Source of the DNA: Longimicrobiales bacterium
GTDB lineage: Bacteria; Gemmatimonadota; Gemmatimonadetes; Longimicrobiales; Gaopeijiaceae
Direction: 5' to 3'
NCBI GenBank assembly: GCA_965249725.1
Contig: CBDFMQ010000002.1
Location: 1,984,001 to 2,048,000 of the forward strand
DNA length: 64,000 nucleotides
Position 1 is the first letter of the stretch, and each line of letters opens with the position of its first letter. Shown here piece by piece: positions 78 to 13,990 of this stretch. Both the position numbers and the translations under genes were made by a program. The notes beneath the pieces are model-generated. The model searched no databases and was not told the origin of the DNA. It saw only the letters and a list, made by a program, of their open reading frames with translations.

Positions 78-497
78 TCAACCATCGGCGGCAAGCGCCT
101 CCACAGCACGCTCACGGATCTTCTGGTTCATCGAATAGAATCCGTTTCGTCGGTTGACCGAGAGATGCTGACCCAGGTCGAGACCTTCGAAGAGGCCCTC
201 CACATCAGCCGACAGGATCTCTTCGGCCGTCTTGTCCGCGTACATGAGAAACAGTACGGAGATGAGTCCCTTCACGATGTGTGCGTCGCTGTCCGCACGG
301 AGCTGCAGCTTGCCATCGTCGGAGGTTCCCAACGAAACGAGCCACACCTGGCTCAGGCAGCCGGGCACCACGTGATCCTGGTCCCGGTTCTCCTCCGGAT
401 ACGGCTCGAGCTTGCGGCCCAGTTGGATGAGGTAGCGATACCGGTCCTCCCATGAGAGGAGCCGATTGAAGCGCTCGACGAATTCGTCCGGTGTCAC
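78..497 (-). CDS. sufE: SufE family Fe-S/sulfur acceptor protein
   Basis: Motifs WEDRYRYLIQLGRKL, VPGCLSQVW (acceptor Cys), ADSDAHIVKGL and HLSVNRRNG. GTG start chosen at 497; the ORF track extends to 560. Confidence 0.9.
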   Translation of the reverse strand: MTPDEFVERFNRLLSWEDRYRYLIQLGRKLEPYPEENRDQDHVVPGCLSQVWLVSLGTSDDGKLQLRADSDAHIVKGLISVLFLMYADKTAEEILSADVEGLFEGLDLGQHLSVNRRNGFYSMNQKIRERAVEALAADG

Positions 498-707
498 GTG
501 CTTGGTATTCCTTTGTCGCGGCTCTTTGTCGCCGACAGGACTCGACCAGTGGGCGGCCATCCATCGGCTAGAACCCCGTGGCCTCGCCGGGGTTTCTTCC
601 GGATGGGGGCCCGCGTATCCTCCCGAGCGACTCTCGGAGGCGGTGGAACGCCTCTAGGGCTGCTACTGCGAAGCCCTCACGACCCGGAACGGCGACCGGA
701 GCCCACT

Positions 708-1031
708 ATGAGCACTCCACCCCTCGACGTGCTGGAACAAGCGGACGATTGGAGGACCCAGGGCTTGGGTGTGGCCCTGGCGACCGTCGTCCGCACCTGG
801 GGCTCGGCTCCCCGGCAACCCGGCAGCCAGATGTGCATCAACGAGCTAGGGCACTTCGTGGGCTCGGTTTCGGGCGGATGCGTAGAGGGCGCCGTCGTGC
901 AGGAAGCTCAGGAGGTCATGGCCCAAGGGGGCACGAAGCTCCTGAAGTACGGCGTGACCGATGAGCAGGCGTGGGAGGTGGGACTCGCATGCGGAGGCGA
1001 AGTCGAGATCTACGTGGAGTCCGTGGAGTGA
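708..1031 (+). CDS. XdhC/CoxI family protein, N-terminal half (Moco chaperone, split gene)
   Basis: ALATVVRTWGSAPRQPGS, GSVSGGCVEG and VGLACGG motifs. ATG at 708. Confidence 0.88.
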   Translation: MSTPPLDVLEQADDWRTQGLGVALATVVRTWGSAPRQPGSQMCINELGHFVGSVSGGCVEGAVVQEAQEVMAQGGTKLLKYGVTDEQAWEVGLACGGEVEIYVESVE

Positions 1032-1720
1032 ACGCCGAACTCCTCGCCCAACTGGTCCAAGATCGGCGGAGCGGTCGGGCCGTTGTCCTAGCGACCAACC
1101 TGGAGAGTGGCGCGCAGGTCCTTCTCTACCCGCTGGAATCAGGACCGGAGGACGTCGGGCCCCTTCGCGACGCCGCGCGACAGGCACTCCTGAACGACCG
1201 GTCCCAACCTGTGGACGACGTCGACGGCCGACATTTCCTGCAGGTACACAACCCACCTCATAGGATGGTGGTCGTAGGAGCCGTCCACATCGCGCAGCCC
1301 TTGACCCAGATGGCAAAACACGCCGGCTTTCAAGTCACGCTCGTCGACCCCCGCGAGTCCTTCAATTCCGAGGCTCGCTTTCCCGGTGTCGACCGCCGGG
1401 TGTCCTGGCCCGACGCCGCTCTGGTCGACCTGGAACTCGATCATCGGACCGCCGTGGTGACGCTCACCCACGACCCGAAGCTCGACGACCCCGCGCTCAT
1501 GGCCGCCCTGAGCAGCCCCGCCTTTTATGTCGGAGCGTTGGGAAGTCGCAAGACCCATGGCCGTCGCCTCGAGCGACTGGCCGAGGCCGGGTTCGACGAC
1601 GATGCAGTATCGAGGATCCACGGACCGGTGGGGCTAGACATCGGGGCGCGCACCCCGGGTGAGATCGCCGCGGCGATCCTCGCCCAGGTCATCGGAGAGC
1701 TGCGGCGAAGCGTCGCATGA
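1028..1720 (+). CDS. XdhC/CoxF family protein, C-terminal Rossmann half
   Basis: VVGAVHIAQPL, LTHDPKLDDPAL, YVGALGSRKTH and GPVGLDIGARTPGEIA. GTGA overlap with the upstream half. Confidence 0.88.
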   Translation: MNAELLAQLVQDRRSGRAVVLATNLESGAQVLLYPLESGPEDVGPLRDAARQALLNDRSQPVDDVDGRHFLQVHNPPHRMVVVGAVHIAQPLTQMAKHAGFQVTLVDPRESFNSEARFPGVDRRVSWPDAALVDLELDHRTAVVTLTHDPKLDDPALMAALSSPAFYVGALGSRKTHGRRLERLAEAGFDDDAVSRIHGPVGLDIGARTPGEIAAAILAQVIGELRRSVA

Positions 1721-2379
1721 TCCACGACGCGGCCCTAGCACCGGAGCGCCACGCGGATGACCCCTCGGGGGTCGTATGCCTGGTGCTGGCGGCGGGATCA
1801 TCCACCCGCATGGGGGACCGGAACAAGCTTCTGGAGCCGATCGACGGCACGCCCATGGTTACTGGTGTGGCCCGCGCCGCGGTGGCGTCCCGGGCCGACG
1901 CGGTCCTGGTCGTCACGGGCGAGGACCGTGAGGGCGTGGAAGCTTGTCTGCGGAAGGTCCCGGTCGATCTCGTCTGGAATCCGAACCACGTCAACGGGCT
2001 CAGCACGTCGGTTCGCGCGGGAGTCGCGGCCCTCCCGGAGGGCACAAAGGCCGTCGTAGTCTGTCTCGGCGACATGCCGCGTGTGCTCCCTCGCCACATC
2101 GACTCGCTGGTACAGGCCTTCCTCGAGGACCCGGACGGATCCATCTTCGTGCCCACCTGGCAAGGTCGGAGAGGGAACCCGGTGCTCTGGAGGGCGAACA
2201 TGCTCCCCGAGTTCGCGGAGCTCTCCGGGGACGAGGGTGCCAGAGTGCTCATGTCCCGCCATCCGACCGAGCTGCGCGAGGTCCCGGTGGACGCCCCTGG
2301 CATTCTCACCGACGTGGACACACCCGAGGCCCTCCGAGACCTGACCACAACAATTGCGAACCGGACCAACGAGAAATGA
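1717..2379 (+). CDS. mocA: Molybdenum cofactor cytidylyltransferase (MocA-like NTP transferase)
   Basis: VLAAGSSTRMG..NKLL, LGDMP, GNPVLW, GDEGAR and DVDTPE. ATGA coupling to the upstream gene, in Mo-hydroxylase context. Confidence 0.8.
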   Translation: MIHDAALAPERHADDPSGVVCLVLAAGSSTRMGDRNKLLEPIDGTPMVTGVARAAVASRADAVLVVTGEDREGVEACLRKVPVDLVWNPNHVNGLSTSVRAGVAALPEGTKAVVVCLGDMPRVLPRHIDSLVQAFLEDPDGSIFVPTWQGRRGNPVLWRANMLPEFAELSGDEGARVLMSRHPTELREVPVDAPGILTDVDTPEALRDLTTTIANRTNEK

Positions 2380-2426
2380 ACACGCCTGCGATGTCGCCTT
2401 CCTGCGACCGAGACGGTTAGGGCCGA

Positions 2427-2990
2427 ATGTCCTCTCTGAGAATCGAAGAGCGTTTCGAGCTGGACGCACCGGCGGACGGCGCCTGGGAGTACCTCACCCA
2501 CCCGGAGCGCATCGTCGTATGCCTGCCGGGAGCCGAGCTGACCGAGGTCATCGATGAGCGCAACTACGCCGGAGGCGTCAAGGTAAAGCTGGGCGCCGTA
2601 GCCATGGAGTACCACGGCACGATCCAGTTCGTCGAGGTGGACGCGGAACGGCGCCTCATCCGGATGGAGGGCAAGGGCAACGAGAAGCGCGGCGGCGGCA
2701 CGGCCACGCTGACCATGGAGAGCGCCGTCCACGAACTCGAGGGTGGCCGCTCGGCCGTCACGGTGGTCGCGGACATCCAATTGGCGGGCAAGATCGTCCG
2801 ATTCGGTAGGGGTATGATCCAAGCCGTCACGGCCGAGGTCTTCAAGGACTTCACGGTCCGTCTGGCGGAAGAGTTGGAGGCGAGTAGACCGGTTGGCGCC
2901 GGCACCTCTAGCCCGGAGTCGCTGCCTCTGCTCCCGCTTCTACTGCGGTCGTTCCGATCGTGGCTCCGGCGCCTCTTCGGAAGCGAGTAG
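2427..2990 (+). CDS. coxG: CoxG / SRPBCC family protein
   Basis: PERIVVCLPGAEL, VKVKLGAV and LAGKIVRFGRGMI, with a short hydrophobic/basic C-terminal tail. Confidence 0.8.
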   Translation: MSSLRIEERFELDAPADGAWEYLTHPERIVVCLPGAELTEVIDERNYAGGVKVKLGAVAMEYHGTIQFVEVDAERRLIRMEGKGNEKRGGGTATLTMESAVHELEGGRSAVTVVADIQLAGKIVRFGRGMIQAVTAEVFKDFTVRLAEELEASRPVGAGTSSPESLPLLPLLLRSFRSWLRRLFGSE

Positions 2991-4161
2991 GCGGCCGGGT
3001 CAACGCCTGTGCAAGCTCCCGTAAGCTGTTCAGGCTGTGCACCGACCGGAAGTCGTCGACGTGTGGAAGGATGGCCTTGATGCCCTGCGCCTCCGCCCGG
3101 AATGCGTCATAGCGCAGCAGCGGATTCAGCCAGATCAGTCGGCGGCACGAGCGGTGGAGGCGGTCCATCGCGGCGCTCAGTCCGTCGGCCCCTTCCCTGT
3201 CGAGCCCATCGGTGATCAGAAGGACCACGGCTCCCTGCCCCAGCACGCGTCGGGACCAGTGCCGATTGAACTCTTCGATACAGGCCCCGATGCGCGTGCC
3301 CCCGTCCCAGTCCTCAACGACGTGGCCGAGACGGTCCAATGCCACGTCGACGTCCCGATGCCGAAGGTGACGGGTGGCGTTGGTCAGGCGGGTCCCGAAG
3401 AGGAACGTGTGCACCCGATCCCTGTCGTTCGTCAGCGCATGCAGGAAGTGCAGCAGCATCCGCGTATAGCCGGTCATCGAGCCGGAGATGTCGCACAAAG
3501 CCACCAAAGTCGGAGGTCGGCGACGCCTGATGCGCCACTCCAAGGGGATCGTCGCTCCGCCCGTTTGAAGCGTGGTACGATGGGTACGACGCAGGTCCAC
3601 CTCCGATCCGGACGGGTGCGGTCGACGCCGCCGGGTCGGCAGGTCCCGGATGGGGAGTCGCATGCGAGCGATCGCTTCGCGGGCGGCCTCGATCTCGCCG
3701 ACGGACATCTGCTCGAAGTCCTTTTCCGATAAGGCCTCACGGTCCGAAAAGGTCATCCGCAAGTCTGCCTCGACCCGCTCACGTTCAGGGTCCATCACGG
3801 AGCCGCCCTCGGCCCAGGCCTCGGCTAGGCGCCGTTGCAGAGGAGGCGGCTCTCGTGTCGGCACCTTCGAGAGAGCGAGTAGCTCCTCCAAAACGGCGTT
3901 CGAGGGAGGTCGGTCGGACCAGAAGAGCTTGAACGCCTCAAGAAAGATCAGCCTCTGCTCGCCCCGCCTCACGAAGACTGCGTGGAGAGCCCAGTAGAAC
4001 TCGTCCGGACGAGTGACATCCACAGCCGCGAGGGCCGTCAGGGCGTTCAGGACGTCTCCCGGACCGGAGGGGAGCCCGGCCCGTCTCAGCAACCGGGCGA
4101 AGTCCGTCACCCGTTGGGCGAACCGATCGCCCCAAGGACGAGCGTCCTCGAAGTCAGCCAA
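2908..4161 (-). CDS. coxE: CoxE-like VWA domain protein
   Basis: LCDISGSM (MIDAS), WDGGTRIG, LITDGLDR and LIWLNPLL. TTG start chosen at 4161, overlapping the coxD stop. The last ~28 codons run antisense into coxG. Confidence 0.85.
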   Translation of the reverse strand: MADFEDARPWGDRFAQRVTDFARLLRRAGLPSGPGDVLNALTALAAVDVTRPDEFYWALHAVFVRRGEQRLIFLEAFKLFWSDRPPSNAVLEELLALSKVPTREPPPLQRRLAEAWAEGGSVMDPERERVEADLRMTFSDREALSEKDFEQMSVGEIEAAREAIARMRLPIRDLPTRRRRPHPSGSEVDLRRTHRTTLQTGGATIPLEWRIRRRRPPTLVALCDISGSMTGYTRMLLHFLHALTNDRDRVHTFLFGTRLTNATRHLRHRDVDVALDRLGHVVEDWDGGTRIGACIEEFNRHWSRRVLGQGAVVLLITDGLDREGADGLSAAMDRLHRSCRRLIWLNPLLRYDAFRAEAQGIKAILPHVDDFRSVHSLNSLRELAQALTRPPTRFRRGAGATIGTTAVEAGAEAATPG

Positions 4162-5077
4162 CTTCCTGCAGAATGGCCTCGACCGGTTCACCGCGAACCC
4201 GAGCCAGGTCATCCTCGTACTTGAGCAGTACGCCCAGCGTCTCGTTGACTACCTCGTGGTCCAGGCTGGACCGCCCCAAGGTCAACAACGCCCGAGTCCA
4301 GTCGATCGATTCAGCGAGGCCGGGCAACTTGAAGAGATCTTCCTCACGCAGGCGCTGAACGAAGTCGACCACCTGGCGCGTGAACTCCTCTCCCGCCTCC
4401 GGAACGCGTAGCGCTACGATCTCTGTCTCCCGATCTCGGGTCGGATAGTCGATCCAGTGGTAGAAGCAGCGACGCTTAAGGGCGTCGTGGATCTCTCGGG
4501 TGCGGTTGGACGTGATGATCACGATGGGCGGCTCTTTCGCCTTGATCGTGCCCACCTCGGGAACGGTGATCTGGAAATCGGACAGCATCTCCAGAAGGAA
4601 CGCCTCGAACGGTTCGTCCGTGCGATCCAGCTCGTCGATGAGGAGCACGGGCGGCCCTTCGGGACGAGCCGCGAGCGCCTCGAGCAAAGGCCGGTGAATC
4701 AAGAACTCGTCGGAGAACACGTCCGACTCGAGCCTGGCTCGGTCCGTGACCCCCGCCGCTTCGGCGATCCGGATCTCGATCATCTGGCGCGCATAGTTCC
4801 ACTCGTAGACGGCGGACGACACGTCCAGGCCCTCATAACACTGCAGGCGGATCAGGTGACGATTCAGCCCCGAGGCCAGCACCTTGCCCACCTCGGTCTT
4901 GCCGACTCCCGCCTCTCCCTCGAGGAAGAGAGGCCTGCCCAGGCTCAGCGACAGGTAGACTGCCGTGGCGAGAGATCGGTCCGCCACATAACACTCCTCA
5001 TGCAGGAGCGTCAGTGTGTCCTCGACGGAGTCCGGGTTCGCGACGCGGTTCTCTATGCGTACGCCTCCACTATGCAC
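4154..5077 (-). CDS. coxD: CoxD-like MoxR AAA+ ATPase
   Basis: [10 protein letters not shown] (Walker A), [28 protein letters not shown] and [11 protein letters not shown] at 5077 overlaps the coxM stop; the start is uncertain. Confidence 0.88.
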
Positions 5078-5864
5078 ACGCCTCCACGGCCCGGCGGGCC
5101 ATGACTCCGACGAGGTGCGCTCTGTACTCCGCGCTGGCGTCCGTATCCGACACCAGGCCATCCTGGTCCAAGCCGACACCGTCGAGGGCGTTGGCCGAGA
5201 AATCGGACGTCAGAACATCTTCGAGGCCGCCTGCTCGAAAGACCTTATATCCCGCACCGGAAACCGCCACGCGGACCGCCCCACCACCCTGTGCCACCAT
5301 GACGCCGGTGATGGCGTACTTGGAGGCGGGGTTGGGGAACTTGGCATAGGCTGCCCGATCGGGGATCGGGAAACGCACGGACGTGATGATCTCGTCGTCT
5401 TCGAGAGGTGTCTCGAACATGCCGACGAAGAAGTCCTCGGCGGCGATCTCGCGACGAGCGGTGACGACCGTAGCACCGAGGGCGACGAGGGCGGCCGGAT
5501 AGTCGGCCGCAGGATCACTGTGCGCCACCGAGCCGCCTAGTGTGCCGCGGTTCCGCACCTGAGGATCGCCGATGTCGCCGGCGAGGTCCGCAAGAGCCGG
5601 AATGGCGCCCCGCACATCGGCGGAGGCGCTCACCTCGGCGTGGGTCATCGCTGCTCCGATCGACAGCGTATCGCCGTCGCTCTGAATCCCTCGGAGCTCC
5701 TCGATTCCCGCGAGAGACACCAAGTCGCTCGGCGCCGCCATATCCAGCTTCATGACGGGGAGCAGACTCTGACCACCGGCCAGGAACTTGCCGGCGTCGG
5801 AGCCTCGGATGGCCTCCTGGGCCTCGGCCAACGTGCCGGGGCGATGGAATGTGAAGTTATCCAT
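5070..5864 (-). CDS. coxM: Molybdenum hydroxylase FAD-binding medium subunit (CoxM/CutM-like)
   Basis: [36 protein letters not shown] and ASAEYRAHL. Confidence 0.9.
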
Positions 5865-5874
5865 GGTCTTCCCC

Positions 5875-8244
5875 TTAGTTGGCGGCCGTAGCGTCCTGGA
5901 TAGCGCGCCACACGCGCTCCGGGGTCGCTGGCATATCCATGTGCTCGACGCCCAGATGGGCCAGGGCGTCGACGACGGCGTTGATGATGGCGGGTGGCAC
6001 TCCGATCGCCCCGACCTCACCAACACCCTTCACCCCGAGCGGGTTGTGCGTGCAGTTGGTGATGTTGTGCCCTGTCTTGAAGAACGGCAGATCGGCGGCT
6101 CGGGGCATCGTGTAGTTCATGTATGAACCGGTGAGGAGCTGCCCGTCATCATCGTACTTGCAGTCCTCCAGAAGCGCCTGTCCGATCCCGTGGGCCAGTC
6201 CTCCGTGCATTTGGCCCTCGACGATCATCGGGTTGATGATCCGTCCCACATCGTCGGCGCAGGCAATACCCACCAGCTCGACGACACCCGTCTCCGGATC
6301 GATCTCGACCTCGGCCACGTGGGCCCCGGCCGGATAGGTGAAGTTGCCGGGGTCGTAGAAGGCCGTCTCATCCAAGCCCGGTTCGAGCCCCTCTGGATAG
6401 TTGTGTGGGACGTACGCTGTGAGCGCGACGTCACCGAACCCTACCGACTTGTCCGTTCCGGCTACCGTAAAGGTGCCGTCCTCGAAGCGGACGTCCGCCT
6501 CGTCGGCCTCCATCAGGTGAGCTGCGATCTTGGTGCCCTTCGCGATGATCTTCTCGGCCGCGTTGTGAATCGCAGAGCCACCGACTGCGAGTGAGCGGGA
6601 ACCGTAGGTCCCCATTCCGAACGGGATCTCCCCGGTGTCTCCATGCACCACGTCGACCTGGTCGATGTCGACACCGAGACTCTCGGAAACGAGTTGGGCG
6701 AACGCCGTCTCGTGCCCCTGACCATGGCTATGGCTCCCGGTGAAGACCGTCACGCTCCCAGTCGGGTGGACTCTCACCTGCCCTACCTCGTAGAGCCCGG
6801 CTCGGGCACCCAATGCGCCGGCTACTGCGGACGGCGCGGCGCCGCATGCCTCGACGAATGTCGAAAGGCCGATGCCTCTGAGCTTGCCTCGGGCGCGTGC
6901 TTCCTCTTTCCTCGACTCGAAGCTCGCCCAGTCCGACATGTCGAGCACCATGTTCAACGTCCCGTCGTAGTCCCCGATGTCGTACTCGAGTGCAACAGGA
7001 GTCTGATAGGGGAACTGATCGGGCTGAATGAAGTTCTTCCGCCGGATCTCTACCGGATCGATGCCCAGTCTTCTGGCAGCCGAGTCGACGAGGCGCTCCA
7101 GCATAAAGGAAGCTTCGGGACGCCCGGCTCCGCGCACCGCGTCTACGGGCACGGTATTCGTGAAGATGCCCTTGACCTCGCTGTAGATGGCCGGAGTGGA
7201 GTAACAGCCTGAGAAGACCGATGCGTACATCCACGTCGGAACCGCCGCTCCGAATGTCGAGAGGTAGGCGCCGAGGTTCGCGTATGTGTGAACCTTCAGC
7301 CCGAGGAACCGCCCGTCGTCGTCGAGAGCCAGCTGTGCGTTGGTCACGTGGTCACGACCATGGGCATCGGACATGAACGCTTCCGAGCGCTCGGCGGTCC
7401 ACTTCACCGGCCGACCGATCCTGATGGACGACCACATGGTGATGACCTCTTCCGGGTAGTGGAAGATCTTGGAGCCGAAGCCACCGCCGACATCGTGCGA
7501 CACGACGCGGAGCTTGTGTTCCGGAATCTGGAGCACGAAGGCTCCCATGAGTAGCCGAATCACATGAGGGTTCTGCGTGGTCGTATACAGCGTGTACACA
7601 TCCCGCGCCGGCTCGTAGTCGCCAATTGCCACGCGAGGCTCGATGGCGTTCGGGATCAATCGGTTCTGCACGATGTCGAGCGACACCACATGCGGTGCAC
7701 CCTCGAAGGCCGCATCGGTCGCGGCTTTGTCACCGAGCTCCCAGTCGAAGCAGACGTTCCCCGGCGCTTCGTCCCAGACCAGAGGCGCCCCTTCCGCCAC
7801 AGCCTGCGGCGACGTGACCACCACCGGAAGACGCTCGTAGGACACGTCGACGAGTGCGGCGGCCTCCTTCGCTTGCGTCTTCGTCTCGGCGATTACGACC
7901 GCCACGATATCGCCCACATGCCTGACCCTACCGACGGCCAACGCCGGGTGCGCAGGCTCCACCATCGGTGTGCCGTCCTTGTTCGTGACGCCCCAACCGC
8001 ACGGCACCCCACCGACCTCGTCGGCCGCCATGTCGGCCCCGGTGAACACGGCCACCACACCCGGTGCGGACGCGGCCTCGGCGGTGTCGACGGCCGAAAT
8101 GCTCGCGTGCGCCTCGGGCGACCGAATCATCGAGGCGAACAACTGGCCCGGTCGGTTGATGTCATCCGTGTAGCGGCCTTTCCCAGTTAGGAAACGGCCG
8201 TCTTCCTTCCGCCGTACGGCGGCCCCGATACCGTTCTCAGCCAC
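5875..8244 (-). CDS. coxL: Molybdenum hydroxylase large subunit, form II CoxL-like (xanthine dehydrogenase family)
   Basis: [26 protein letters not shown], active-site loop [29 protein letters not shown] and [12 protein letters not shown] start at 8244. Confidence 0.9.
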
Positions 8245-8246
8245 GC

Positions 8247-8714
8247 TCAGCCTCCTATCTCGGAAGCCGCCGCCTGCACGGCCTTCACGATGTTGTGGTA
8301 GCCGGTGCAGCGGCAGAGGTTGCCCTCCAACCACTCCCTCACGTCGCCCTCCGACGGGGAGGCATTGCCCTTCACCAGGTCGAGGCTGCTCATCACCATA
8401 CCCGGAGTGCAGAATCCGCACTGGAGGCCGTGGTGCTCCTTGAAGGCCGCTTGCATGGGGTGAAGAGCCCCGTTCGTCGCGACACCTTCGATGGTCGCGA
8501 CGTCGGCACCGTCGGCTTCAACAGCCAACATGGTGCAGCTCTTGACCGACTTGCCTCCGACGTGCACGACGCAAGCCCCGCACTGACTGGTGTCGCACCC
8601 GACGTGGGTGCCCGTGAGCGAAAGGGTCTCACGCAGAAAGTCGACGAGTAGAGTGCGCGCCTCGACCTCGTGCGAGACCGCTTGCCCGTTTACCTGCATG
8701 GAAACGACTGGCAT
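8247..8714 (-). CDS. coxS: [2Fe-2S] small subunit (CoxS-like)
   Basis: [21 protein letters not shown] and GNLCRCTGY cysteine motifs. Confidence 0.92.
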
Positions 8715-8740
8715 GAACGGCTCCCTGTAGGGGAGAAGGA

Positions 8741-8771
8741 TCACGGCCGGTCCCGAAGGATCCGGCCGTGA
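8741..8771 (-). terminator. Stable hairpin with cUUCGg tetraloop between the clp-REC gene and coxS (terminator or RNA-stability element)
   Basis: Minus strand reads TCACGGCCGG-A-TCC-TTCG-GGA-CCGGCCGTGA, followed by TCCTTCTCCCC (pyrimidine-rich, not a clean U-tract). Confidence 0.5.
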
Positions 8772-8810
8772 CTTGGAACGAGGTCAGGATGGGGCGCTGA
8801 AAAGGCCCGG

Positions 8811-10277
8811 TCAAGCCGTCGCGGAGCGGCTGCTTCCTCCGCTGAGGCTGAGGGCCTCGAGGGCCCCCAGAAGTTCCTCGGCGACGAAGGGTTTCTTCAG
8901 GAAGGCGATCTCGTAGCTCTGACAGAGGAGGAACTCCTCTTCGTCCAGCGTGGCCCCGCTCATCACGACCGCTCCCGAGTTCTCGAATTCCTTGATGAGT
9001 TCCACCGCGAAGCCGACGCCCTCTCCGTCCGGGAGGATGTGGTCGAAGAGGAGAACGTCGGGCGCCGACTCCGATATCATTCGCCTGGCGCCTTCCACGG
9101 TCGAGGCGAGTCGGACCTCGTGCCCCTCCTCTACGAGGATCCGCTTGATCCAGCCCATGAGGGCCTCGTTGTCATCCACGGCGAGGACGCTCAGAGGCGC
9201 CATCTCTAGACGGGGAGTACCCCCCGCGGCGACGAGGGTCAGGTGGTCACCTTCTTCGTGGAGGTCCACGGTGACGTTGGCTCCCGGCGCAACCTCCCCG
9301 TTCGCCACCATGGCGGCCAACGGCTGAGTCAGGTGCCGGTGAATGGTCCGGCGCAGCTCGCGGGCGCCGTATTCCATGCTCGTCCCCTTGTCGAGCATGA
9401 AGAACCGGGCGGCGGGCGCCACCTCGATCTCGAAGGAGCGGCTGCCGAGGCGACTCTGAACGTGCCGCTGCAGGTCCGTAACGTGCTGTTCCAGGATGGC
9501 GACCAGCGAATCGCTGCCCAGGGGGCGGTACGTGATGACCGCGTCGATTCGGTTGACGAACTCGGGTGAGAAGTGACGCTGCACGGCGCGCAATCCTACC
9601 CTCTCCAGGTGCGCGGCCAGCTCGGGTCCGGGTCGACGCCGTTGCGTGTCGAATCCGAGCCCCGGCTGGATTTCTGCCATCATGTCGCGGGCACCCAGGT
9701 TGCTCGTCAGGAAGATGATGGACTGTTCGAAGTCCACCTCGGACCCGTCACCCAGCCTCAGGGTGGCCCTGTCGAGTACGTCGAGCAGCAGCTGAGCGAG
9801 CGAGGGCGCGGCCTTCTCGATCTCGTCGAAGAGGACCAACGTGAGATCGCTCCGGTCGCTGGCCGAGGAGTCGAGAGTCTCCTGGGTGAGTCTGGGCTCG
9901 GTCTGGGCATGCCCTACGTACCCGGGTGGTGCCCCGATGAGCTTGGCCACTTCGTGCTCGTGTTGGAACTCGCCGCAGTCGATCTGCACGATGCGGCGGA
10001 CGTCCCCGTGCAGCACTTCAGCCAAGGCCTCCACGGTGCGGGTCTTACCGGTGCCCGTCGGCCCGAGCAGCAGAAAGACACCGACCGGCCGGCCCTCGGG
10101 AGCGAGCCCCGATTGATGGAGCTGAATGCTCGGAACGATGTGCTCCAGGGCGTGGGCTTGACCGACGACCTTGCTCGAGAGGAGCCCGATCAGTTCGTCG
10201 GTGCGGCTCGGGCCCCCTACCCGATCGTCCGGCACTTCGTCCCTCGACCCTTTGGCGTCGTCACTGATCCCGCTCAA
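8811..10277 (-). CDS. Clp-family single (D2-type) AAA+ ATPase fused to a C-terminal response-regulator receiver domain
   Basis: VVGQ start of D2, GPTGTGKT, KLIGAPPGYVG pore loop, LFDEIEKA, PEFVNRID and YGARELRR, then a receiver with VDD, FDHILPDG, MSG and KKPF. GGAGG RBS precedes the TTG start. Confidence 0.85.
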   Translation of the reverse strand: MSGISDDAKGSRDEVPDDRVGGPSRTDELIGLLSSKVVGQAHALEHIVPSIQLHQSGLAPEGRPVGVFLLLGPTGTGKTRTVEALAEVLHGDVRRIVQIDCGEFQHEHEVAKLIGAPPGYVGHAQTEPRLTQETLDSSASDRSDLTLVLFDEIEKAAPSLAQLLLDVLDRATLRLGDGSEVDFEQSIIFLTSNLGARDMMAEIQPGLGFDTQRRRPGPELAAHLERVGLRAVQRHFSPEFVNRIDAVITYRPLGSDSLVAILEQHVTDLQRHVQSRLGSRSFEIEVAPAARFFMLDKGTSMEYGARELRRTIHRHLTQPLAAMVANGEVAPGANVTVDLHEEGDHLTLVAAGGTPRLEMAPLSVLAVDDNEALMGWIKRILVEEGHEVRLASTVEGARRMISESAPDVLLFDHILPDGEGVGFAVELIKEFENSGAVVMSGATLDEEEFLLCQSYEIAFLKKPFVAEELLGALEALSLSGGSSRSATA

Positions 10278-10316
10278 CTCGACCCTCCGTGTAGGATGTC
10301 ATGTTTCAGTAGGCCG

Positions 10317-11192
10317 TCACCCGCCGGCACTCGAGGATTCCTGCCCGGCACCGGTCTCTACGCTGGCTCCGACCAAGTTACCCCACTCCGTCCAGGACCC
10401 GTCGTAGTTCTTGATGTCGTCGTACCCGAGCAGGTACTTCAGCACGAACCACGAGTGACTGCTGCGCTCGCCGATGCGGCAGTACGTGATGATGGGCTGT
10501 TGTCCAGTGATCCCGCGATCGGCGTACACCGTGGCCAACTCGTCCCGCGACTTGAACGTACCGTCCTCGTCGTTGACCGCCATGCCCCAGGGAATGTTGG
10601 ACGCACCGGGAATGTGGCCTCCCCGCTGACAGGTCTCCGGGAGGCCGGGGGGAGCCAGAATCTCTCCGCTGAATTCGGCCGGGCTACGGACGTCCACCAG
10701 CTCGACCGCATTGTCGCTGACCTGTGCCTGCACTTCAGGCAAGAAGGCGCGAAGTGTGAGATCGGCCTCGGCGGCCTGATACCCCGTGGAGGATACCGAC
10801 GGCACCGCGGTCGTCATGTCCCGCCCCTCGGCCTCCCACTTCTTGCGCCCACCGTCCATGAGGCGCACGTCCTCATGACCATAGATCTTCAGCTGCCAGA
10901 ACGCCCATGCGGCGAACCAGTTGTTGCTGTCTCCGTAGAGGACGACAGTCGAATCGGGGCCGATGCCGGAGTTGGACAACAGCGCTTCGAGGTCTTCCTT
11001 GGACAGGATGTCACGTCTGATCCGATCGGCGAGTTGGGTCTTCCAACTCCAGCCGATGGCGCCGGACAGATGACTCTGATCGTACAGCTCCGTATCGACG
11101 TCGACCTCGACGATCGTGACTCGATCGTCCTCAGCGTGATCGGTCACCCAATCAGTGGTGACGAGGACTTCGGGGTGTGCATACTCAGACAT
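10317..11192 (-). CDS. Tandem-domain rhodanese / thiosulfate sulfurtransferase (CysA/SseA-like)
   Basis: YAHPEVLVTTDW, GHIPGA, active site YCRIGERS and YDGSWTEWG. AGGAGG RBS. Confidence 0.93.
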   Translation of the reverse strand: MSEYAHPEVLVTTDWVTDHAEDDRVTIVEVDVDTELYDQSHLSGAIGWSWKTQLADRIRRDILSKEDLEALLSNSGIGPDSTVVLYGDSNNWFAAWAFWQLKIYGHEDVRLMDGGRKKWEAEGRDMTTAVPSVSSTGYQAAEADLTLRAFLPEVQAQVSDNAVELVDVRSPAEFSGEILAPPGLPETCQRGGHIPGASNIPWGMAVNDEDGTFKSRDELATVYADRGITGQQPIITYCRIGERSSHSWFVLKYLLGYDDIKNYDGSWTEWGNLVGASVETGAGQESSSAGG

Positions 11193-11269
11193 GGTTGGCC
11201 TCCTGGTAGGAGCCGGCGAGTAGAAGCCCCGGGGCGCGCCCGGGCCGGGTCACAGCAAAATGTGTGAAC

Positions 11270-11288
11270 GATCGGATTCGTTCCGATC
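11270..11288. promoter_or_regulatory. Candidate operator palindrome upstream of the sulfurtransferase
   Basis: Perfect inverted repeat GATCGGA-N5-TCCGATC, ~80 bp upstream of the start in an AT-richer intergenic stretch. Confidence 0.35.
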
Positions 11289-11381
11289 ATACGCCGAGCT
11301 ATTTCAAAAGGAAACCTGGGAAAACGGGGGGAGGCGGCGAGTCGTCGCCCCTTCTGAGGCGCCGGGTCGGGTGGAGATCAG

Positions 11382-11455
11382 ACCCGGTGCAAACCCAGTG
11401 CAGACGGGTGTAAAAACCCGGTGCAGGCCCGGTGCAACCTCAGTGGGTCAGTGGA
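11382..11455. repeat. Degenerate ~11-bp tandem repeat, consensus ACCC(G/A)GTGCA(A/G)
   Basis: GTG cores start at 11387, 11398, 11408, 11421, 11432, 11443 and 11451. Confidence 0.6.
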
Positions 11456-11470
11456 CGAATATGGCTTCCA

Positions 11471-13990
11471 TCATCCGCACTCGCTGTATCCGCAAACGTG
11501 GCACTTGACGCACCCTTCTTCGAACGAGAGCTGACCGGCTCCACACTCGGGGCAGCTGCCGAAGAAGTTGTTTTGATCACCGTGGTCCGCTGCAGGCTGG
11601 GCTTGTGTGCCTCCGGCGCCCGCGCCCACTTCCAGAGGCAGGGTCTCCTGCACTCCGTCCTTCTCGGCCATGTACTTCTCGAGGGCCTGCCCAATGGCGT
11701 CCGGCAGCGACAGCACTTTGTTCGGGCCCACTCCAACGGCGCGATCCGACGAGATTCCGCGGAGTTGATCCCTGACTGCCGGAATCGGGATGCCGGACCG
11801 GAGAGCCAATGAGATCAAACGACCGACTGCTTCGGCGTCGGCCGTGGCAGCGCCGCCCGCTTTACCGAGCGTGCAGAAGACCTCGAAGGCACGCCCGTCT
11901 TCGTCTTCGTTGATAGTTACGTAGCAGTCGCCGAGCGGTGAACTCATCTTTACCGTGCGGCCCCGAAGCATCGAAGGACGCTGCCGCTTGTGTCGTCCGG
12001 CCGCCGCGGTGAGATCCTGCTCCTGTTGGTCCCGATGTACCTGCTCCAACTCCACGTGAAGTCCGTGCAGCGACTCGCGGGCGTCCGCAAGCAGATGTTC
12101 GAGCTCGAGCACCTCAGGGCTGCTGTCACCGCTCTCAGACTGCTCCGTCTTACCCGTGGACAGGACTTGGCCCTCCCTCGATCCATCCCGGTACACGGTG
12201 ACGCCCTTGCACTGGAGGTCGAACGCGAGCTGATAGATCTGCCTGACGTCCTCCTCCGAGGCCTCCGTGGGGAAGTTCGTGGTCTTCGAGATGGCCGAAT
12301 CCGTGTGCTCCTGGAACGCCGCCTGCATCCGCACATGCCACTCGGGTGTGATGTCGTGAGCGGTCTTGAAGACCGCCTGAACCTCTTCAGGTACCTCGTC
12401 GAAGTGGATGTGCCCCTCCTCCGCGATCCGTGTCATCAGATCTTCGGAGTACCAGCCCTCCGCGTGAGCCCGAGCCACGAAGTCCGGGTTGACATCGGGC
12501 ATCAAAGCACCGGCCTGATTGCGCATGAAGGCAACTGCGAAGATCGGCTCGATGCCTCCTGAACATCCGGCGAAGATGGAGATGGTGCCGGTCGGAGCCA
12601 CCGTGGTGAGGTTGCAGTTGCGCAGGCGACGCTCGGGCCTGATGCGGCGTCCCTCTTTGTCCCGGGCGCAGACATCGTCGGGACCCCAAATCGACTCCTC
12701 CCAGGCGGGGAACGCTCCGCGCGTTTCGGCCAGCCTCTCCGAGGCGTTACGAGACTCCTCGTTGAGGAAGCCCATGACCTTCCGCCCCATCTCGACGCCT
12801 TCGGGTGTGTCGTAGGGGATTCCCAACTTGATGAGCATGTCCGCCCAACCCATCACACCGAGGCCGATACGGCGAATCGTCTGGGCCAGCTCCGTGATGG
12901 CCGGGAGAGGATACCGGTTCGCGTCGATGACGTTGTCCAAGAAGTGGGTGGACAGCGCTACGGTTTGGCGCAGGCCGTCCCAGTCGATCATTTCGGCCGG
13001 CTCGGCGTCCGCCGGGGCGTCTTCGTGTACGAACGTCGCCAGGTTGATGCTTCCGAGATTGCAGACGTCATACGGGAGCAGCGGCTGCTCGCCACACGGG
13101 TTCGTCGCCTCGTAGACGCCGAGCTTGGGAACCGGATTGAAGGCGTTGGCGCGGTCGATGAAGAACGTGCCGGGCTCACCGGTCTTCCACGCGCCGTGCA
13201 CGATCATGTCGAAGATCTCGCGGGCGTTTTCCTGTCCGACCGCTTCGCCACTCTTCGGGCTCACCAAGTCGTAGCTGGCGTCGCTCCGCACGGCCTCCAT
13301 GAAGGCGTCGGTGAGAGCGACCGAGATGTTGAAGTTGGTGATCTGCGACGTGTCGTCCTTACAGGTGATGAACGACCGAATGTCCGGATGATCGACCCGC
13401 AGGATGCCCATGTTCGCTCCCCGCCTCGTCCCACCCTGCTTCACCACCTCGGTGCTCGCGTCGTAGAGGCGCATGAACGAAACGGGTCCGGAGGCCACTC
13501 CCATGGTGGACCGAACCTGGGACCCGGTGGTCCGTAGCCGCGAGAAGGAGAAGCCCGTCCCACCTCCGGACTGGTGTACCAGAGCCATGGACTTGAGCGT
13601 GTCGTAGATGCCGCTCGAGCCGTTCGACAGGGCGTCGTCGACGGGAAGGACGAAACACGCGGAAAGCTGACCCAGCGGCCGACCGGCGTTCATGAGGGTG
13701 GGCGAGTTCGGCTCGAACTTGCCATTGGTCATGAGGTCGTAGAACTGGCGCGCGAGCTCCCCGACGGCCGCATCCGACGCCCCGTGGTCCCTGTCCGTGC
13801 CGGCGATGACGCTCGCCACCCGCCAGAACATGGTCTCGGGCTCTTCGATCGGGTTGCCGTGCTCGTCCTTCTTCAGGTACCGCTTGGCCAGAACGATGCG
13901 CGCGTTCTCTGAGAGATTCGCAGGAGGAACGTCCTCCGGGACTACGTCATCGAAGATCTGCGCATCGTCTGAGGGGGAGCCCTGCTTCAT
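11471..13990 (-). CDS. nrdJ: Class II adenosylcobalamin-dependent ribonucleotide reductase
   Basis: PNSPTLMNAG, QLSACFV, GGGTGFSFS, RRGANMG, TNPCGEQ, CNLGSINL, APTGTIS, KGVTVYRDGS and a C-terminal CPEC..CHVCG Zn ribbon. No ATP cone is apparent. Confidence 0.95.
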   Translation of the reverse strand: MKQGSPSDDAQIFDDVVPEDVPPANLSENARIVLAKRYLKKDEHGNPIEEPETMFWRVASVIAGTDRDHGASDAAVGELARQFYDLMTNGKFEPNSPTLMNAGRPLGQLSACFVLPVDDALSNGSSGIYDTLKSMALVHQSGGGTGFSFSRLRTTGSQVRSTMGVASGPVSFMRLYDASTEVVKQGGTRRGANMGILRVDHPDIRSFITCKDDTSQITNFNISVALTDAFMEAVRSDASYDLVSPKSGEAVGQENAREIFDMIVHGAWKTGEPGTFFIDRANAFNPVPKLGVYEATNPCGEQPLLPYDVCNLGSINLATFVHEDAPADAEPAEMIDWDGLRQTVALSTHFLDNVIDANRYPLPAITELAQTIRRIGLGVMGWADMLIKLGIPYDTPEGVEMGRKVMGFLNEESRNASERLAETRGAFPAWEESIWGPDDVCARDKEGRRIRPERRLRNCNLTTVAPTGTISIFAGCSGGIEPIFAVAFMRNQAGALMPDVNPDFVARAHAEGWYSEDLMTRIAEEGHIHFDEVPEEVQAVFKTAHDITPEWHVRMQAAFQEHTDSAISKTTNFPTEASEEDVRQIYQLAFDLQCKGVTVYRDGSREGQVLSTGKTEQSESGDSSPEVLELEHLLADARESLHGLHVELEQVHRDQQEQDLTAAAGRHKRQRPSMLRGRTVKMSSPLGDCYVTINEDEDGRAFEVFCTLGKAGGAATADAEAVGRLISLALRSGIPIPAVRDQLRGISSDRAVGVGPNKVLSLPDAIGQALEKYMAEKDGVQETLPLEVGAGAGGTQAQPAADHGDQNNFFGSCPECGAGQLSFEEGCVKCHVCGYSECG

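Follow-up and report, generated by a model that had tools for sequence, protein, structure and literature searches.

Within the window, by which we mean the whole 64-kb stretch of DNA analysed here, one gene encodes a 488-aa protein that joins the second AAA+ module (D2) of a ClpA/B/C-type ATPase, including an LGF tripeptide in the predicted ClpP-docking loop, to a C-terminal receiver domain. Judging from the sequence, we lean towards reading this protein as a single-ring (class II) ATPase that works with ClpP and is regulated by way of its own receiver; taken separately, partnership with ClpP is quite probable and a functional phospho-switch probable. Such an architecture suggests that a sensor kinase could control protein degradation directly. 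The ORF lies on the minus strand and starts with TTG; the plus-strand frame across the same interval is interrupted by stops. The features are as follows.

8811..10277, minus strand: D2-only Clp ATPase-receiver fusion gene (ORF and Pfam; start position shared with loci L001-L004)
10284..10288, minus strand: GGAGG ribosome-binding site, 6 nt upstream of TTG
9222..10205, minus strand: ClpA/B/C-type D2 AAA+ module, aa 25-352 (Pfam, NCBIfam and structure matches)
10041..10064, minus strand: Walker A GPTGTGKT, aa 72-79 (motif; K78 in 202/203 fusion rows)
9912..9935, minus strand: pore loop GAPPGYVG, aa 115-122, which grips the substrate; the next residue, His123, is specific to the family (Y120 in 203/203, H123 in 120/120)
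9810..9827, minus strand: Walker B DEIEKA, aa 151-156 (motif; E152 in 203/203)
9651..9659, minus strand: LGF tripeptide, aa 207-209, in a loop predicted to dock on ClpP and flanked by helices 196-203 and 217-235
9549-9551, minus strand: arginine finger R243 (conservation)
9348..9368, minus strand: sensor-2 GARELRR, aa 304-310 (motif and conservation)
9192..9224, minus strand: linker joining AAA and receiver, about aa 352-362, whose length hardly varies within the family (junction spanned by contigs)
8835..9191, minus strand: receiver domain, aa 363-481, with D368/D369, D412, S440 and K462-P463 (Pfam, model and conservation)
9042-9044, minus strand: phospho-acceptor D412 (motif and conservation)

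Pfam places AAA_2 at aa 63-246, ClpB_D2-small at aa 254-337 and Response_reg at aa 364-473, the last scoring 45.1 bits where the cut-off is 30.2. The NCBIfam models for ClpB/ClpA (also ClpA/B/V/G/K) match solely through their second ATPase module, corresponding to positions 562-848 of 853 in the ClpB model. The class I Clp layout of two AAA+ modules and an N-domain is thus absent: D2 stands alone, preceded by ~24-25 residues. By sequence, the protein has the class II layout, one AAA+ module with intact Walker A and B motifs, sensors and arginine finger, and its receiver is canonical, combining the receiver fold with the acidic pair, the phospho-Asp, Ser/Thr and Lys. The ClpX family profile was matched at just 34.5 bits (cut-off 359, E 1e-8), the zinc-binding N-domain of ClpX is missing, and the Pfam scan detected neither a Lon ATPase nor a Lon protease domain in the fusion protein. 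A sequence-only reading of this DNA, which assigned no strand to the ORF, had described a Clp D2, an LGF motif and a receiver in one protein, and the Pfam matches and motif positions bear it out. The motifs VVGQ (aa 37), GPTGTGKT, GAPPGYVG, DEIEKA and GARELRR were all recovered where that reading had placed them, as were the LGF at 9651-9659 (aa 207-209) beyond the sensor-1 TSNLG (aa 191), the receiver residues DD 368-369, D412, S440 and KP 462-463, and the gene's own GGAGG at 10288-10284, 6 nt ahead of TTG; the proposed lack of an N-domain, D1 and M-domain agrees with the restriction of the ClpA/B/C model matches to D2. No sigma-70 promoter match was found in 8600-11600, and a GC-rich hairpin without a U tract lies at window positions 8740-8770, ~40 nt past the stop codon and ahead of coxS.

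An AlphaFold2 monomer model, built from an input alignment of 40 rows (mean pLDDT 87.1, pTM 0.71), begins with ~24 disordered residues, which are followed by the D2 module and a five-stranded receiver, with the LGF in a less certain loop (residues 204-216, pLDDT ~70). The best Foldseek matches for the model were ClpB NBD2 and ClpC.

The junction between the AAA and receiver parts, near position 9200, had been named as a point at which the fusion might prove artefactual. It is spanned, with zero differences, by single contigs in 4/4 runs from four studies, covering positions 8699-9396 in three runs and 8699-9384 in one; one of the four contig-bearing runs may be the source sample. A T/C polymorphism at window position 9781 yields Asp166 in the window and Gly166 in two of the four runs and in the homologue P0002. 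Within the 203 fusion rows, Asp at residue 166 is seen in the window alone, the remaining 202 having Gly, Ser or Ala, and it may be mildly deleterious.

A search of 50%-cluster representatives retrieved many D2-only proteins of 320-420 aa, which share the signature DC[GA]E[FY]Q..HE[VI]AKLIG[AS]PPGY[LV]GH. In a maximum-likelihood tree of 61 rows, in which the bootstrap had nearly settled, the 39 rows of the D2-only family form one branch (bootstrap/SH-aLRT 100/99), set apart from, rather than nested within, ClpA, ClpB or ClpC; the 21 two-ring rows include host ClpC as well as ClpB-type, ClpA, ClpK, ClpL and ClpV proteins. This tree takes in one third of the receiver-less rows and none with tandem D2 modules or inteins, and a quick tree of 107 rows recovered the family branch with SH-aLRT 99. 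Identity to host ClpC is ~34%, which, together with the separate clade, indicates that the gene is not a truncated clpC. The sequence-only reading had spoken of a ClpX-like single-ring ATPase; the single AAA+ module stands, and the likeness to ClpX gives way to membership of a separate D2-only clade related to the D2 of ClpA/B/C.

It is extremely unlikely that the gene represents a broken or split clpB or clpC fragment, a mis-assembly, or a stand-in for a missing ClpB. This explanation draws on the lack of a clpB match in the host genome (G000, 95.8% complete) and on stops in some close relatives. Against it stand the clade and the low identity to host ClpC, the junction spanned in four studies, and the host genome itself, in which no separate D1 gene was found. 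Replacement of ClpB, suggested by its absence in the host and in 6/11 close carriers, was rejected on 251 host-family genomes, 189 of which have a clpB match: ClpB is present in 14/22 carriers of the fusion versus 175/229 non-carriers (Fisher p = 0.20, with kin being non-independent).

All 15 fused rows of the tree fall within a 19-row branch (97/94), alongside four receiver-less rows. Likewise, all 29 fused receivers group in one branch when compared with 31 host and seven neighbouring receivers (SH-aLRT 97, in a tree built on few columns). Because the fused rows share one ATPase branch and the fused receivers share one branch, the simplest reading is that the receiver was apparently gained once, in one sub-clade, and then lost by some members.

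We next consider conservation across the family. The 120 best homologues have identities of 56-100% and are headed by an allele of the window gene; PF00072 was detected in 117 of them. The fusion set comprises 203 distinct rows with a C-terminal receiver, pooled from homologues and loci, window included, and picked with a receiver profile made in this analysis; 61 rows are left below 80% identity. In the 203 rows, the ATPase residues are essentially invariant: Walker A Lys in 202, Walker B Glu, sensor-1 Asn and the pore Tyr in 203 each, and the arginine finger R243 and sensor-2 R306 in 202 each. The receiver residues follow closely, with D368 in 201, D369 in 197, D412 in 196, S/T440 in 198 and K462 in 200. 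Between the window and nine relatives, dN/dS is 0.03-0.08 for the AAA part and 0.08-0.32 for the receiver; in three close pairs, at dS < 0.1, the receiver value is 0.60-0.75. On these comparisons, the D2 ATPase, the pore loop, the LGF-type loop and the receiver phospho-site are all under purifying selection.

The LGF-type loop is the main pointer to ClpP. Loss of the motif in homologues had been set out in advance as evidence against a ClpP partner; instead, at the ClpC position, G208 is kept in 203/203 and F209 in 201/203 rows, position 207 is L/F/I/M/V/Y in 202, and the flanking residues are just 13-51% conserved. The loop lies 16 residues beyond TSN in 59/61 rows, compared with 14 in host ClpC. 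As a control, we inspected 29 two-ring rows from Gemmatimonadota: [LVM]GF occurs in 17 ClpC-type rows and is absent from eight ClpB-type rows and one ClpV, three rows lacking the anchor. The claim that ClpB has no IGF/LGF loop thus holds in 8/8 ClpB-type controls and agrees with the available text of PMC10149685, according to which the LGF loop is the ClpP dock and distinguishes ClpC from ClpB.

The near-invariance of Gly-Phe in an otherwise variable loop, at the ClpC position, also weighs against a ClpP-independent single-ring remodeller or chaperone (AmiB/ClpN- or Skd3-like) that is regulated by the receiver and uses the LGF-type loop for something else. We consider this alternative distinctly unlikely, even with three points in its favour: structures of single-D2 relatives have been solved (CLPB/Skd3), the motif is eroded in some of the receiver-less family (the strict [LIVMF]GF is present in just 80/147 receiver-less members), and the nearest outside row, which the tree places as the likely sister group (98/91, long branch), is a 363-aa amidase-linked D2-only ATPase without the tripeptide. 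That protein, WP_075288620.1 from a Rhodococcus plasmid, which we take to be AmiB/ClpN-like, shares the D2-only layout with the fusion but is 31% identical to it, has a different pore loop and lacks both an LGF-type motif and a receiver; the comparison involves one reference protein, whose record is labelled just 'AAA family ATPase'. A second plasmid 'AAA family ATPase', tried as a possible AmiB, turned out to be a 964-aa protein. No amidase gene was among the recurrent neighbours of the fusion, either in 80 metagenome loci or in 22 host-family carriers.

Returning to the ClpP partner regulated through its receiver, the course of events can be sketched by analogy with established Clp biology. 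Six copies would form a ring, in which the GYVG loops would grip substrates and the LGF loops would dock the ring on ClpP. The host genome encodes ClpC (LGF), ClpX (IGF, its gene adjoining clpP), HslU and a single ClpP, located at L019:1426-2076 on the minus strand, so that the fusion would compete with ClpC and ClpX for the sole ClpP. A histidine kinase encoded elsewhere would phosphorylate D412, and this may alter ring assembly, ClpP engagement or substrate recruitment. ClpP was present in 11/11 carrier genomes checked, a co-occurrence that says little because ClpP is nearly universal. The points that weigh against this reading are that an N-terminal substrate domain is lacking and no adaptor was identified, that D412 is replaced in 7/203 rows, that the receiver has been lost in relatives and that a two-component context is found in one lineage.

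The missing N-domain, the single ClpP common to ClpC and ClpX, and the occurrence of receiver-less relatives on phage contigs could also fit a regulated competitor or poison subunit, which would occupy ClpP or mix into ClpC or ClpX rings and thereby shut proteolysis down rather than deliver substrates of its own. A plug of this kind would need none of the Walker B, arginine finger, sensor-2 and pore Tyr residues, which are essentially invariant, and we regard it as very unlikely.

The nature of the receiver can be approached through its phospho-site and through genomic context. The sequence-only reading had reported no kinase in the window, and there is indeed no HATPase_c or HisKA match in the 64-kb window; the 14 HisKA matches of the host genome all lie outside it. 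Nor did the 1.5-kb flanks of the gene contain a kinase in any of the 22 host-family carriers. At least 542 metagenome loci were retrieved, and the best 80 of them (79 giving a near-complete D2) include six with two-component context, all from one lineage. Four of these six (L074, L083, L091 and L121, mutually 63-75% identical) have the fusion gene among kinase and/or NarL-type regulator genes, and two more (L106 and L108) have the gene in the same setting on contigs cut ahead of the receiver; the neighbours include PAS kinases and, in L083, a REC-GGDEF-EAL gene. Among the best 80 loci, 47 adjoin csp, infA or wecB, 29 with and 18 without a receiver; three of the latter are cut by a contig end, leaving at least 15 syntenic relatives without a receiver. 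As receiver-less relatives occur at the same locus, the receiver is an add-on that the motor does without, and for the same reason it most likely acts, if the preferred reading holds, as a brake or as a substrate or adaptor tether, being unneeded for assembly. In seven loci (L053, L054, L061, L069, L071, L079 and L099), a Cas6-like gene (PF10040 in L079) is divergent from csp-infA beside the ATPase gene.

Alternatively, the protein might be a ClpP partner whose receiver is not a switch but binds substrates or partners constitutively, or takes up phosphate as a sink for signalling close by. D412 is replaced in seven of the 203 rows (six Glu, one Gly), the residue at 459, the aromatic switch position, varies (Phe in 77/203), several lineages lost the receiver and a cognate kinase is not conserved nearby. 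We nevertheless find this version unlikely: the whole phospho-site is kept in ~97% of rows, in proteins 42-60% identical to the query, and one lineage is placed among two-component genes.

In the window, the order is nrdJ, rhodanese, fusion gene, coxSLM with maturation genes, and sufE; the cox-like cluster (positions 78-8744) has a large subunit with AVRGAGR, which we take to be a form II-like motif, followed by maturation genes and sufE. The position between rhodanese and coxSLM pointed out by the sequence-only reading is therefore correct for the window but does not hold as a general context: of the 22 host-family carriers, eight have both rhodanese and coxS, one has rhodanese alone, seven have the order nrdJ-gene-sufE and six have unrelated genes. 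Moreover, neither rhodanese nor cox was a recurrent neighbour in the 80 best metagenome loci, out of at least 542. A functional link to rhodanese or cox was rejected, since these neighbours are lineage-specific.

Members of the D2-only clade occur most often in Acidobacteriota and sporadically in Gemmatimonadota, and some phages encode them as well. The Atlas holds three fusion-like clusters, with 130, 67 and 91 members, in which Acidobacteriota are commonest and one member is named Acidobacteriota, and the named homologues and close loci belong to Longimicrobiales/Gemmatimonadota. In the host family, the gene occurs in 22/251 genomes and 8/81 genera. Among 300 other genomes of the host phylum, with five candidates scored per genome, the fusion was found in one and a receiver-less member in one; the survey includes four unpublished genomes (G057, G097, G157 and G182), none carrying the gene. 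Two of the 22 host-family carriers have an in-frame TAG, one has a frameshift and in one the match begins at position 46; given a stop or frameshift in three carriers and the missing match start in a fourth, the gene appears dispensable in the host family. Disrupted copies, reflecting decay or assembly error, have an in-frame stop at L001:6001-7464, L004:6001-7464 and L068:8001-9350, and a frameshift at L011:6001-7412.

Receiver-less members are encoded on viral contigs (L131-L135 and L159), and L126 is a further phage or phage-like example; most phage and phage-like members retain the LGF-type loop. It is possible that they serve as motors for host ClpP. Among cultured phages and plasmids, the best matches reached 37% and ~39%, respectively, and none covered the fusion; in PHROGs, the match is confined to the D2 part of a two-ring family. 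Whether these proteins make up a class of single-ring ClpP partners that has so far gone undescribed, spread over Acidobacteriota, Gemmatimonadota and phages and with one branch phospho-switched in cis, is an evenly balanced call.

The fusion can be compared with several known systems. With the D2 of ClpC and ClpA, which work with ClpP as ClpCP and ClpAP, it shares the fold, the GYVG pore loop, sensor-2 and the LGF loop after sensor-1, but it lacks their N-domain, D1 and M-domain, belongs to a separate clade and has gained a C-terminal receiver. With ClpX it has in common one ATPase module and the ClpP tripeptide (IGF in host ClpX), but it matches the ClpX model weakly, has no zinc-binding N-domain and descends from a ClpA/B/C D2. 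CpdR and RssB are separate receiver-domain adaptors that control ClpXP proteolysis without being fused to the motor; here too a receiver would control Clp proteolysis, but it is carried in the motor chain. To our knowledge, the signals known to control Clp proteolysis act by way of separate adaptors. The available text of PMC9495089 lists ClpX, ClpM, ClpN and ClpY as class II Clp ATPases with one NBD.

A receiver in one chain with an AAA+ proteolytic motor is found in DVU3303 of Desulfovibrio vulgaris, a receiver-Lon fusion whose protease activity, according to a proposal by the authors of PMC3333781, may depend on phosphorylation. DVU3303 differs in being a Lon, which itself contains a protease domain, and in having a kinase next to it, whereas the fusion has a Clp D2, would use ClpP in trans and usually has no adjacent kinase. 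The assertion of the sequence-only reading that no characterized cis fusion is known thus stands insofar as DVU3303 itself has been proposed to be regulated in this way, and falls insofar as a cis fusion of a receiver to an AAA+ protease had already been noted (PMC3333781, as far as available). In the Atlas, the receiver-Lon clusters are separate from the fusion clusters (score 0.88), and we infer that the two arose independently. We found no description of the fusion or the D2-only clade in a literature search covering mostly titles and abstracts and few subscription papers. The available text of PMC7824862 mentions phage ClpP, ClpS, ClpA and ClpX and does not mention a D2-only family there, and PMC4558063 mentions neither Clp nor AAA nor protease. 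The receiver-fusion architecture may be listed in the census of response-regulator outputs (PMC3086695), which lies outside this search. Thus, the combination of a receiver with an AAA+ proteolytic motor in cis has a Lon precedent, and its Clp version is apparently unstudied.

If the preferred reading is true, the fusion would be the Clp counterpart of receiver-Lon, letting a kinase reallocate a single ClpP between motors. A motor with a built-in receiver would offer a compact, reconstitutable kinase-to-protease switch consisting of one 488-aa protein and ClpP, with the receiver-less relatives at the same locus as natural controls. The D2-only Clp clade of soil bacteria and phages further bears on the purpose for which ClpA/C require their D1 ring and N-domain, and on the possibility that phages supply host ClpP with motors of phage origin.

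Finally, several unusual architectures and residues were observed in the wider family. Seven representatives (P0141, P0168, P0170, P0174, P0196, P0207 and P0239) have inteins or LAGLIDADG domains near the P-loop. P0139, P0164, P0166, P0223 and P0254 are 1000-1300 aa long, with two or three tandem D2-type modules, and P0124 and P0135 have a common N-terminal domain (residues 1-130) ahead of D2 without a Pfam match. Residues 1-120 of P0146, taken by eye for a degenerate receiver, gave no Pfam receiver match at E 0.05. A single sequence, P0127 (610 aa), has TIR_2 fused ahead of D2 and of a receiver whose phospho-site holds Glu. Cys101 does not vary among the homologues (120/120), and Cys452, which lies in receiver helix 4, reaches 80% conservation; a redox or metal role is possible.
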